From contig OZ024750.1 in the NCBI GenBank assembly GCA_964016885.1, positions 19,220,001 to 19,284,000 on the forward strand: a stretch of DNA of 64,000 nucleotides, read 5' to 3'. The notes beneath the pieces are model-generated. The model was not told the origin of the DNA. It saw nothing but the letters and a program-made list of their open reading frames with translations, and made no database searches. The position numbers and the translations under genes are program-made. The DNA is from Eledone cirrhosa. Its lineage: Eukaryota. Shown in pieces: positions 21,915-48,774 of the stretch (its first letter is position 1; every line of letters starts with the position of its first letter).

Positions 21915-22372
21915 TACAATATTAAATAAATGGAAACTATATTTATAAAACCATATTTATTTCATTATATATATTTCAGGGATATCATACTAACAATATG
22001 CTATGCCTTCCTCAGACAAAATACAATATAAACAGTTTTATAGATAAATAGATTTGACATACCGTAACAACATCGACTTGTATTTGAAAAGTTGAATTGG
22101 CAGTTCAACTTTTCAAATACAAGTCGATGTTGTTACGGTATGTCAAATCTATTTATCTATAAAACTGTTTATATTGTATTTTGTCTGAGGAAGGCATAGC
22201 ATATTGTTAGTATGATATCCCTGAAATATATATAATGAAATAAATATGGTTTTATAAATATAGTTTCCATTTATTTAATATTGTAAATATACTCCAAATA
22301 CTTGTCGAGTGCTTTTATATCAGTTATAAATATTTACTAGTTGTAACCCAACAATTTAAATATAACTTTCCA
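21915..22372. mobile_element. Fold-back element: 182-bp inverted arms with hammerhead core, ~85-bp one-sided tail, within (TA)n
   Basis: Arms 21915-22096 / 22104-22285, no mismatch seen by eye. Confidence 0.9.
22177..22242 (+). ncRNA. Type I hammerhead ribozyme motif (mirror copy on - strand near 21958-22023)
   Basis: Stem I TATTTTGT/ATGAAATA; CTGAGGA 22185-22191; stem II AGG.ATA.CATA/TATG.TAT.CCT; GAAA 22223-22226; palindromic (AT) stem III ending in UA. Confidence 0.7.
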
Positions 22373-23373
22373 TATATATATATATATATATATATATATA
22401 TAAGGATTCACAGAAACCAATCGAGGTTGTTGTAAAATATCCTTCGATACAGTTCAGGTTTGTTATTTAACCTGATTATATTTTCGTTGTTGTGGTGACT
22501 TCTGTGGTTTTGTCCCCTTAACCACAGTTTTCAATTTGTCACGCCATTTAACGTATGTGTATTACTTTAAGATGTAACTTATCGATTTATCGATATCTTC
22601 TTATTGGGTGCTTCGTGCAAAGCTTCCGAATATTGTTATTTCGAGGATTCTGGCCGAGCGCCGCAATTTCGATTTTACTCACTTCCACTCTTATATATAT
22701 ATATATATACAGAGAAAGAGAGAGAGGTAGAGAGAGAGAGTGAGAGAGAGAGAGAGAGAGAGAGAGAGAGAGGGGTGAGGTATAACCTCGAACACGACGC
22801 CCTGCGGATTCGGCTTGTGCTCACTAAGCCGGAATCATATGGCGTTGATGTCTGGTTTATACCTTCCTCTATACCCTGCTTCTAATACATTGTGTACTCC
22901 CATGATTTGTGGTCACCCTGGTCTCAGCACCGCAAAAATATATGTATATATATATATATATGTGTGTGTGTGTGTGTGTGTGTTTGTGTGAATTTATGAA
23001 ATGAATTATTTTAGAAATAGGAGCAGGTATGTCAGTGTGGTTAAAGATCTGATTTCGTATCTACGTGATATCGGCTTCCACTCTAATCTCGGATTGGTAG
23101 ACGGAAATTGCAGACGTGCCATTTGTGTGTGCGCGCGCGCGCGCGCGCGCGCGTGTGTGTGTGTGTGTGTGTGTGTGTGTGTGTTTGCATGTGTATGTGT
23201 GTGCATGTGTGAATAATCAACAAATTCTCTTGACGGCTGTGCTCCAGCATTGCCGTAGTCTAATCATTGGAACCAATAAAAGAATCGAAGAATAAAGAAT
23301 GAAGAATATAATTAATTTTCAGTAAATTTCACAAGTACAAAAATACATTACTTTATCACACAGAAACCAAGAA

Positions 23374-23541
23374 TTATTTCGTGAAGGCCACTTTGGGAAA
23401 GACTACCCAACATGCTATGTTTTTGTGTATAATATCGAATGTGTTCTTCAGTTTTTTCTGGTAAGATATTTCGCTGTCATTTTTAGCGGGTGGAGGTACC
23501 ATGTAGAAGTACCCTGTTTGGTTCACCTGAGCTGCAATTTC
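23374..23541 (-). CDS. Candidate terminal coding exon (EIAAQVNQTGYFYMVPPPAKNDSEISYQKKLKNTFDIIHKNIACWVVFPKVAFTK*), gene unknown
   Basis: Complex non-repetitive sequence, 55 open codons after a CTAAT...TCTTCAAAG acceptor; no family recognised. Confidence 0.3.
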   Translation of the reverse strand, partial: EIAAQVNQTGYFYMVPPPAKNDSEISYQKKLKNTFDIIHKNIACWVVFPKVAFTK

Positions 23542-24568
23542 CTTTGAAGATATTATTATGATTAGAAAAACTGATAAAACTTTATGAAGAATCCATTTAA
23601 TTTCTTTAAAATTGAAATTGAAAAAAATAATAATAAAAAGAGATAGTTTCAACATCTGGAAGACACAAAGCACGTGTTTGTTTACACACACACTCACACT
23701 CACACTCACACACAGACACATATACTTAGACGCATTCATGTATATCATATATATATATATATATATATATATATAGGTATATACATATAAATTTATATAT
23801 ATAAATATATATATATATATATATATATATATGTATGTATATATACACTATACACAAGGAAAGAAAGAAAAAAACGGAAAGAAAAAAGAACGACGAATGG
23901 GAGAAAGAAAGATGCATATATATGAAAATAGAAAGTAATAGATAACATAAGCAAACAAGAGAGATAGAGAGAGAGAGAGGGGGAAAACTGACAGGGAGAG
24001 ATAGAGATAGAGATAGAGATAGATATATATAGATAGACAGATAGATAGAGAGAGTGAGAGAGAGATATTTAGATAGATAGAGAGAGAGAGAGCGAAGAGA
24101 GAGAGAGAGAGAGAGAGAGAGAGAGAGAGGGAGATAGAAAAAGACAGAGGGAGCTGTTATAAATATAAATATTTAGAAATATAGAAATGAAATGAAACAA
24201 TAACACAAGAAGAAACGACGAACAAACACATTTAGTTACTTTCTGATAAATTTTGTGTTAAAAGAAGACTTTAACATATTCAGTGAGAGTCGGGTTGCGT
24301 GTCAATATAAACGTCTGTAATTATATTACGTAATTAAGGTGAAAGAAACAAGTGTATATCACGCCAGTTAGCTTCCATCATAATTTGGCACCTTACACGG
24401 TAAACAAGTGGAAATAATATCCTTAGACCTCCAGCTACGAAAGATTCCCCCATCCTGGTAATCACAATGGCAATGTTTTTGCCAATTATATTATATACCA
24501 TGCAAGCTGGTAGTTGCAAAACCAGAGTGATGGAGATGTAGAGATGAAGGAGTAAAGAAAGTGGGGGG

Positions 24569-24868
24569 GGGAGACAAAATGAAGATAGGGGGTAGTAGGA
24601 GAGATAGGGAATAAAGAGAGGAAAGAATTTAAGAACTTAGGAAGCGAAGGAGTAGGAGAAAATTATGAAAAATTAGTTGTAGTATTATAAAATGTGAGGA
24701 GGGGAAGATGACAAGAGGAGTGGGGAGACAAAGTGAAGATAGGGAGGGGTTAGTAGGGGAGATAAGTGTAGTAGGAGAGATAGGGGATAAAGATAGGAAA
24801 GAATTTAAGAACTTGGGAAGCGAAGAAACATTTTAGTTGTAATGTTATAAAATGTGAGGAGGGGAAGG
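24569..24868 (+). repeat. Diverged tandem duplication of a ~150-bp purine-rich unit
   Basis: GGGGAGACAAA.TGAAGATAGGG...GGAAAGAATTTAAGAACTT...TTATAAAATGTGAGGAGGGGAAG twice. Confidence 0.85.
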
Positions 24869-25139
24869 TTGGAAAAAATAAAGTATTTGGTAAATTTAAT
24901 TGAAAAACTCTCGCATTTGGTGCTTTTGATGATGATGATGATGATAATGAGGATGATGATGGTGGTGGTGATGATACTGGTGATGGTGGTGTGGTTGGTT
25001 TTTGTTGGCGGTTATTTTAGTGGTTGCGATGGTTGTTATTGTAGTAGTGTTATTTTTGGTGGCGATATTGTTGTTAGTGGTGTCGGTATTGTTTGGGGTA
25101 TGTTGCTAGTTATATTGTTGGTTGGTTGAAGTAGTTGTA

Positions 25140-46870: not shown

Positions 46871-47827
46871 ACCCTCTTCCTGCTGTTTCAAGTGTTAACC
46901 TAATATATTCCTTCCAACCGTACCGATTGTGTTGTTATTTCTGTTTACCTTTTGCACACACACGCGCACACACACACACGTGCACACACACACACACACA
47001 CACACACACACACACACACACACACACACACACACACACACACACACACACACACACACACACACACACACACACACACACACACACACACATATATATA
47101 TATATATATAGGGATAGATGAATAATTTGCTAGATAGATAAATAGACATATATGTGTATGTACCTACGGGACACATTAGGAAGGTATAAATTTAAACAAA
47201 GATAAAATTGGGTGTGTTTAAACATGTGAAAGGGAGATAGTGAGTCAGAGATAGATGGGAAAGATAGATGGGGAGAGATAGATAGAGAGCGACCAGGCTG
47301 AGACAAAGAGAGAGAAAGAGAGATAGATAGATAGATAGATAGATAGATAGATAGATAGAGAGAGAGCGAGAGAGAGAGAAAGAGATAGATAGATAGATAG
47401 AGAGAGCGAGAGAGAGAGAGAGAAAGAGATAGATAGATAGATAGATAGATAGATAGATAGATAGATAGATAGATAGAGAGAGAGATGAGAGTATTTGGAT
47501 TTATAAATGTGAAGTTTCTCAGAATGTAACAGATTACTTAAATGGATGATAAGATAAAGATTATTTGACGTGTAAACTTCAAAGATCTGTCAAGCTTGCA
47601 AGGTATCGCCTCACAATCTGCAAGTAATATATTGAAAACAACACATAAAAACCCTTGAAATGCTCTCTTTTGTCAAAATATCTAGGAATTTTGACAGGAA
47701 TTTATACAATGAAATATTTCCCGCCTTCTGTTTTTTTTCATTGCTTTTCTCCTGCTGTTGCTTGACTATGTATTCTCCATTTAAATATATTTACTACCTG
47801 ACAAAACCTATAACGAATGAGGGAAGG

Positions 47828-48162
47828 GGCGCTACACTGTCGCTCGATTTGGTAGAAATAGCAACGATATCTTGCTGGAATCATACTCTAACGTATTCAA
47901 TAAAGAAGGATATATAAATATACACATATATCACCATCATCTAGTCGAGCTTGCTCGGACAAAATGATGATGATGATGATGATGATGATGATGATGATAT
48001 ATATATATATATATCATCATCATCATTTTGTCCGAGCAAGCTCGACTAGATGATGGTGATATATGTGTATATTTATATATCCTTCTTTATTGAATACGTT
48101 AGAGTATGATTCCAGCAAGATATCGTTGCTATTTCTACCAAATCGAGCGATAGTGTAGCGCC
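47828..48162. repeat. Inverted duplication of host DNA centred on (ATG)n(AT)n(CAT)n
   Basis: About 135-bp unique arms, one mismatch seen. Confidence 0.95.
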
Positions 48163-48350
48163 ATAAGGAACAAGGTGGACCATAAAGCACCAGAGTACTC
48201 GATACTTAGGATAGTAGAGTGGGTAATAGGAAAAGAGTCAGGACTCCGACGGCTGCTGGGCTCCGGTATTGCATACTAGTGGTTTAGTTCGGATCTAGCT
48301 GTCGAAACGGGCCGGAGCTCAGCCGTCGGGGTCCTGACTATTTTCCTATA
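48163..48350 (-). mobile_element. Family P1 fold-back variant
   Basis: ATAGGAAAAGAGTCAGGACTCCGACGGCTG / CAGCCGTCGGGGTCCTGACTATTTTCCTAT arms; tail is reverse complement of the 6010-6072 type. Confidence 0.8.
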
Positions 48351-48470
48351 TATATATATATATATATATATATATATATATATATATATATATATATGTC
48401 ATTATTCAAACAGAACTCAAAACGATAAGATCTAGTTTTGAATATGTCACTATCTGGAAAACAACTTTTG

Positions 48471-48531
48471 TATTTTATCTGATGAGGGTGTACCAAAATT
48501 TTGGTACCCTTGAAATATATATAATCAAATA
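48471..48531 (+). ncRNA. Type I hammerhead motif, same family as 22177-22242
   Basis: TATTTTAT-CTGATGA-GGGT-GTACCAAA-AT-TTTGGTAC-CCTT-GAAA-TATATA-TA-ATCAAATA; downstream AATATGGTTTTATAAA shared with 22243 onward. Confidence 0.75.
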
Positions 48532-48774
48532 AATATGGTTTTATAAAGATAGTTTTCATATATATTAATATTATATATATATATATATATATATATATAT
48601 ATATATATATATATACACAGTATATCATTTAATGTAGTCCCTGAAGAGTCGGAACAAATACCGCAAAGAATGTTATCCAACATTATAGCGATTGTGTCAA
48701 TCCACTGCATTTATACTACTACTACTACAACAACAACAACTACTACTATTACTACTACTACTACTACTACTACT

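Follow-up and report, generated by a model that had tools for sequence, protein, structure and literature searches.

Hammerhead motifs at the ends of a Penelope-like element family in Eledone cirrhosa, with support for selection on helix II pairing

Introduction

Two sites in a 64,000-nucleotide stretch of DNA from Eledone cirrhosa (assembly GCA_964016885.1, contig OZ024750.1, forward strand, 19,220,001 to 19,284,000; this whole stretch is called the window, and positions are counted from its first letter) present the frame of a hammerhead ribozyme around middle segments that look unlike each other. A preliminary description of the sequence had read these sites, A (22177) and B (48471), as two copies of one family with unrelated stem II sequences that nevertheless fold, and therefore as internal evidence for selection on RNA structure. 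This raises two questions: to what kind of element do the sites belong, and is the pairing of their stem II selected? They bear on the wider issue of what the hammerheads found in Penelope-like elements (PLEs) do: these motifs cleave poorly alone and are dispensable for insertion in the one system studied in vitro.

In our reading, to which we give a probability of about 0.8, A and B are 3'-end fragments of two subfamilies of a PLE with Hydra-clade protein motifs, inserted in (TA)n; each bears a type I hammerhead motif that likely cleaves the element's tandem RNA and that has kept its helix II pairing from one subfamily to another.

Anatomy of the two sites

Both sites share a type I frame, in which an eight-pair helix I encloses the core, helix II, GAAA, a self-complementary 8-mer and the cut-site A, and both display the CUGANGA core, the GAAA and the UH at the cut expected of a type I hammerhead. 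In motif A (22177..22242, plus strand), helix I pairs 22177-22184 with 22235-22242, the core CUGAGGA occupies 22185-22191, and helix II (22192-22222), which has C.C at pair 4 and G.A at pair 8, is followed by GAAA (22223-22226) and the 8-mer (22226-22233), with a cut predicted from the hammerhead consensus at 22234/22235. In motif B (48471..48531, plus strand), helix I pairs 48471-48478 with 48524-48531 and contains one U.C mismatch, rare in the family; the core CUGAUGA (48479-48485), helix II (48486-48511), GAAA (48512-48515) and the 8-mer (48515-48522) precede a predicted cut at 48523/48524.

Position 22100 is the centre of a head-to-head palindrome: copy A forms its right arm, and its left arm has the identical hammerhead on the minus strand. 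The inverted arm (21909..22099, minus strand) is a 5'-truncated 3' end of the element without tail, and its outer end merges with the (TA)n target microsatellite (21889..21916); the direct arm (22101..22291, plus strand) matches it everywhere except at 22097/22103 and 21914/22286. The second motif (21954..22028, minus strand; core starting at 22015, predicted cut 21966/21965) is identical to the plus-strand one. While the left arm ends in (TA)n, the right arm continues through a one-sided tail of about 80 bases (22292..22372, plus strand) to (AT)n (22372-22402), and an ACTC/GAGT hairpin (22291..22310, plus strand) lies directly behind the main insertion end point. Insertion B (48398..48573, plus strand) is a lone 3' fragment of about 175 bases with a (TA)n run on each side: a single 5'-truncated 3' end of a different subfamily, without tail, preceded by its target microsatellite (48347..48397) and running into (AT)n. 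Copies A and B are probably inert, truncated products. Two contig runs of unknown kind attest to presence and to (TA)n loose ends at 22291 and 22369, and are silent on expression or cleavage.

A model built from 30 family motifs gave just three matches above 25 bits in the window, two in A and one in B; the minus-strand motif of A scored 84.8 bits with a model that included its identical plus-strand copy. In an Rfam scan of the window, neither site was among the best 150 of 308 matches; those listed were mostly microsatellite-driven miRNA matches, and among them only an unrelated motif at 38246-38317 matched a hammerhead model.

Helix II pairing within the family

Sites A and B are homologous (BLAST E 1e-24, 80% identity over 119 columns), and CTGA(G/T)GA (22185, 48479) and GAAATATATATA are common to both, in agreement with the preliminary description. 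Their middle segments both fold as hairpins, at -5.5 (A) and -11.4 kcal/mol (B); compared with shuffled sequences, the fold of copy B alone stands out (z -3.46), that of copy A showing no excess (z -0.65). The claim that stem II differs entirely between the two did not hold: 13 of the 20 arm bases are identical in ungapped register (6/10 in the 5' arm, 7/10 in the 3' arm), and the distal part and the loop are the only parts that differ. Within the stem there is one true double swap, at pair 5 (A-U in A, G-C in B), together with one-sided wobble changes at pairs 1 and 2 and a mismatch-to-pair change at pair 8 (G.A in A, C-G in B), pair 4 being mismatched in both. A and B by themselves are thus little evidence for selection on structure, and the part of the original argument that does stand, selection on stem II pairing, comes from the family and not from these two copies, which are homologous in register.

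We collected 203 motifs with distinct context from 173 loci, using search patterns that left stem II free and mostly fixed the core, helix III and the 5' strand of helix I. Four motifs with short stems were dropped, leaving 199, and a one-base bulge register was applied to 13 of the distinct stems. The concern, raised in the preliminary description, that most members might lack a pairable stem II was not borne out, since 177 of the 203 motifs reach -3 kcal/mol or better. Among the 199 motifs, pairs 2, 3, 5 and 6 are formed in 184, 191, 190 and 183, and pairs 7, 9 and 10 in 186, 190 and 186, respectively. In 30 hand-picked diverse motifs, 95% of the stem II cells are paired, as against 39-52% with slid partners, and both-sided changes occur at seven of the nine pairs.

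Flank-only clustering split the subfamilies imperfectly, and haplotype and tree tests were therefore used instead. In the first, from which edited copies (described below) and short stems were removed (185 of the 203 motifs kept), 9 of the 13 changes among the 14 haplotypes seen at least three times keep pairing, 6 of the 13 through double swaps, whereas 19 of 54 changes in rare haplotypes keep pairing and 2 of 54 do so through double swaps (7 were too distant to score). Shared and rare haplotypes thus differ both in pairing kept (P 0.03) and in double compensatory changes (P 4e-4). In a tree built from the flanks only (168 sequences), partner changes share a branch 22 times, compared with a mean of 7.6 in permutations (P 1.5e-4); the tree is rough because the flank alignment is short, and the palindrome arms in it are not independent.

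Pairing could also be kept up without selection, through template switching in a quasi-palindrome that copies one arm onto the other; helix II of copy B is indeed a nearly perfect palindrome, and these elements readily form fold-back structures. Such a process should nevertheless erase mismatches, and pair 4 is paired in just 3 of the 199 motifs and C.C in 182. G-U pairs also persist in helices I and II. The lasting C.C mismatch and these G-U pairs argue against neutral palindrome repair, as does the conservation of the core, and we regard template switching as a very improbable source of the pairing. Indeed, in a search that left the core and GAAA unspecified, both were intact in 95 of the 100 matches listed (counted by eye), the five exceptions all differing from each other and N7 varying freely. 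Helix I has all eight pairs in 176 of 189 motifs, its 5' strand being fixed by the search pattern; among the 30 hand-picked motifs, 98.8% of its cells are paired and changes are one-sided only. When loci L094 and L100 are compared, the hammerhead region (77% identity over 123 nt) is the sole non-coding BLAST match, the identity of the open reading frames (ORFs) being 71%. RNAalifold recovered helix II and not the hammerhead frame. These data support the view that helix II pairing is under selection across the family; corrected for the tree, they are evidence that a helix II geometry including a fixed mismatch is selected across elements with proteins only about 55-75% identical.

The parent element

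The family is large: two mutually exclusive exact patterns gave 19,651 and 19,591 matches (39,242 together) in the 3.0-Gb genome, with none for the reversed controls. At locus L100, the motif lies in direct repeats 3.68 kb apart that flank an ORF, which defines a unit of about 3.7 kb in which the ORF starts about 250 bases behind the hammerhead; at loci L091-L097, element ends occur as inverted pairs. The ORF of the protein P0001 is open over 576 amino acids and has YRDD and GIY-type motifs, the GIY-YIG domain (PF01541) being matched at E 1.5e-4 and 22.4 bits, slightly below the 22.6 cut-off. RWR, DKT, CxCx5C, CxxC and CxH motifs are present in the element protein. The markers of the Hydra clade (DKT, the CxCx5C linker, and CxxC plus CxH near the end) are found, and CCHH, judged by eye, is absent; insertion in (TA)n, as in that clade, is also observed. 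RWR replaces RWK in L093, L100 and L102, and homologues show both; of the 42 homologues, an Octopus bimaculoides record is the only named one. Motifs of the A type are on proteins 77-100% identical to P0001, while those of the B type adjoin, in three loci, fragments 33-59% identical to it.

On these sequence grounds, both sites are assigned to the ends of a Penelope-like element with Hydra-clade protein motifs, and they belong to a new family of a known clade. A literature search retrieved no paper on this family, most subscription journals lying outside that search. We also considered that the sites might be non-LTR (long terminal repeat) retrozymes and rejected this identity: there is no tandem array at either site, and the family is tied to an ORF.

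Elsewhere in the window, 7642-8240 (minus strand) is a decayed piece of a related PLE ORF, 34-40% identical to P0001. Among the genomic loci, L098 and L099 contain tandem copies of a GC-rich element with two ORFs (713 and about 1200 codons), probably a LINE (long interspersed nuclear element), nested between two family motifs 15 kb apart.

Helix III and predicted folds

The preliminary description had raised, as speculation, a role for the (AU)n stem III in dimerisation or in annealing to the target. Full self-complementarity of the 8-mer is seen in 188 of 189 motifs, a figure largely fixed by the search pattern, and the only shared variant, present in 32 of 189, preserves the pairing by means of G-U; within the family we found no compensatory change in helix III. 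Closing helix III in one molecule costs about 3 kcal/mol, while the 8-mer self-duplex is worth -3.2 kcal/mol. Dimeric hammerheads are the published model for PLE motifs of this kind (PMC4209133), and the self-complementary 8-mer, as modelled here, fits it; dimerisation may thus be retained, target annealing being left without support (see below).

Several results weigh against our reading. In helix II, pair 8 is formed in just 120 of the 199 motifs and pair 1 in 170; both palindrome arms were counted, so that motifs are not independent; two of five whole-structure measures fail to beat shuffles (197/500 and 390/500); and 4 of the 13 changes among shared haplotypes break a pair. In the predicted minimum-energy folds, A and B, alone and paired, do not form hammerheads: the strand of helix I on the 5' side pairs with GAAAUAUA, which buries the core. 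No reverse transcriptase (RT) domain was found with Pfam in 6 + 8 proteins, and a profile search of the PDB returned a weak retron RT match only (E 0.018); the RT call accordingly rests on motifs. A single-sequence PDB search gave nothing relevant. Finally, in the Poseidon_Ac system, mutating the hammerhead left insertion in vitro unimpaired, and RNA-seq yielded no reads with an end at the cut (PMC11167929).

Since the predicted folds bury the core, help from a protein, as in Poseidon_Ac (PMC11167929), is likely if cleavage happens, by analogy with that system. The same facts lend some colour to another explanation, namely that the fold is under selection for binding protein or for packaging, any cleavage being weak or a by-product: in vitro, minimal PLE hammerheads show poor cleavage (PMC4209133), cleavage in Poseidon_Ac requires protein and is dispensable for insertion (PMC11167929), helix III is weak, being all A-U, and an alternative fold is predicted to dominate. 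The pattern of conservation points the other way, as the catalytic positions and the cut-site A are fixed (the cut-site base mostly by the search patterns) and N7 is variable, as if catalysis were selected. We consider this explanation rather unlikely.

Insertion ends and the proposed pathway

The preliminary description had proposed to test whether insertion junctions map to the AU stem. They do not: none of 128 motifs joins (TA)n there. Untailed copies mostly end +46 to +56 from the predicted cut (91 of 133), and tailed copies, which make up 65 of 198, mostly end +130 to +159 from it (54 of 65). The first end point lies a few bases before the ACTC/GAGT hairpin (within 5 bases in 54 of 85). 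This hairpin, whose loop is variable, occurs in all subfamilies with read-through copies (51 distinct copies, selected by motif).

These ends bear on the idea that reverse transcription is primed by the (AU)n helix III, annealed to the (TA)n target once this is nicked. The sequence of helix III does match the target, and the upstream product of cleavage would have the helix at its 3' end; the observed junctions are nevertheless all elsewhere, and both the published Hydra elements that insert in (TA)n (PMC8557442) and the sister element of locus L102 have non-AU helices III, the latter with a palindromic 8-mer of different sequence that is not an AU repeat. The shared trait is the palindromy of helix III, not its likeness to the target, and priming by the AU stem seems to us barely credible.

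Returning to the cleavage reading, we propose the following pathway. Selection would act on active master lineages, inserted copies such as A and B decaying neutrally. Tandem transcripts would carry at least two hammerheads, which may pair through the 8-mer, helix III being unstable in one molecule, and may then cut after GAAAUAUAUAUA, probably aided by the element's protein. Reverse transcription would start 3' of the cut at a distance of about 50 bases, which would give the untailed ends, or of about 140 bases, which would give the tailed ones, and the AU stem would make no contact with target DNA. A read-through transcript of A is predicted to be a 190-bp hairpin hiding both motifs. The predicted cut site and the insertion ends are shown to be separate, which leaves the known picture unchanged.

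Edited copies and the sister element

Some copies carry an excess of A>G differences on the sense strand: 26 of the 31 differences from the nearest copy at L009:1418-1683 (minus strand), and 13 of 20 at L030:1494-1706 (plus strand). A fold-back insertion of the present family with A>G changes and a broken core recurs at L010-L018, L020-L024, L102 and L103 (e.g. L102 724-1111 and 6431-6819). In the type represented by L010, A>G accounts for 18 of 21 changes in one of the arms and for 12 of 14 in its counterpart, both read on the same strand. Of the A residues in the paired arm, 12 of 39 are changed, whereas the unpaired tail has 0 of 32 changed; the change of GAAA to GAGG breaks the core. A preference for U or A and an avoidance of G as 5' neighbour are the pattern of ADAR enzymes, and the edited sites have U or A in this position in 65 of 69 cases and G in 1 of 69; contrary to the usual ADAR pattern, there is no enrichment of G on the 3' side (2 of 28).

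One edited 32-mer has 29 exact occurrences, and at 13 of 14 loci the flanks match those of a sister Hydra-like element, in whose repeats the edited hairpin is carried (L018 shows only 67% identity upstream). The edited, core-broken hairpin of the present family has thus spread inside the sister element, which has a type I hammerhead motif of its own (L102:5340-5491, minus strand); the helix II of that motif spans 115 bases, and the palindromic 8-mer of its helix III differs from that of the present family. Five additional changes, all A>G, are common to four loci that stem from three insertions, which suggests a second round. A literature search, with most subscription journals outside it, found no paper on A-to-G-edited PLE copies in DNA.

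ADAR editing was also considered as the driver of the compensatory swaps in helix II and is unsupported, since ordinary copies show no sense-strand excess of A>G: a crude count gives 28 A>G versus 35 T>C among shared changes and 45 versus 98 among private ones.

As a tentative extension, which we think possible and on balance doubtful, the C.C at pair 4 could serve to dock helix I or the element's protein and thereby turn a hammerhead that is misfolded and dimerises weakly into its active form, and fold-back insertions could silence the ribozyme as double-stranded RNA, be A-to-I edited, re-edited and re-amplified over rounds in the sister element. If the docking idea were true, tens of thousands of copies in many subfamilies would amount to a natural mutational scan of a protein-assisted dimeric ribozyme.

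Comparison with known systems

The closest counterparts are the C-terminal EN+ PLEs of the Hydra clade (PMC8557442), which likewise have a single ORF with C-terminal GIY-YIG, DKT, a CxCx5C linker, CxxC and CxH, insert in (TA)n, carry a hammerhead in the 3' repeat and show inverted 5'-truncated copies and a one-sided tail. They differ in having RWK where RWR is found here, units mostly below 3 kb instead of about 3.7 kb (L100), and tails of 30-40 bases instead of about 80. None of the Hydra hammerheads in File S2 of that source, Hydra-1_oBim included, equals the present sequence, and the present family has a longer helix II (9-13 pairs) with an internal C.C, and an AU 8-mer as helix III. Metazoan PLE hammerheads described in PMC4209133 have a G10.1-C11.1 closing pair, whereas the first position here is either unpaired or formed by A-U or G-U. 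The exact patterns match at least 39,242 motifs here, compared with about 9,000 in the largest genome quoted there. The parts of that text covered here make no mention of a C.C mismatch such as that of the present family, although the alignments in its supplement may show similar ones. What sets this family apart is its copy number and the fixed C.C mismatch, covariation and dimerisation in PLE hammerheads being already published.

In Poseidon_Ac (PMC11167929), as proposed for the present family, the tail is delimited by two internal start points located 3' of the hammerhead; Poseidon_Ac belongs to another PLE clade, and its ORF begins inside the hammerhead instead of about 250 bases behind it. 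Metazoan non-LTR retrozymes (PMC7229834; bioRxiv 10.64898/2026.07.22.740005) also have type I hammerheads in abundant non-coding repeats, whereas A and B contain no tandem monomer arrays and the present motifs end ORF-bearing elements.

Other features of the window

The window contains further hammerhead-like sequences. A second head-to-head palindrome between (TA)n runs (45233-45824) has the core of a different family (45504, minus strand; 45613, plus strand). The motif at 38246-38317 (minus strand) is a compact type I hammerhead with a palindromic 6-mer in helix III (Rfam HH9, 38.6 bits, below the gathering threshold), and close to it, at 38740-38860, an inverted pair of cores (38793, minus strand; 38805, plus strand) of a further family adjoins (TA)n. 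Cores at 57902 (plus strand) and 58312 (minus strand) form a tail-to-tail inverted pair around an (AT)n run and have a branched middle segment of 66 bases, while those at 46840 and 61560 (both plus strand) are isolated, with helix I weak or none.

Other repeats comprise a GC-rich tandem array of a 20-base unit (33752-35665), whose alternating orientations generate long inverted repeats, and short tandems of a related 190-205-base, SINE-like (short interspersed nuclear element) repeat at 2356-2765, 11822-12212 and 16646-17210.

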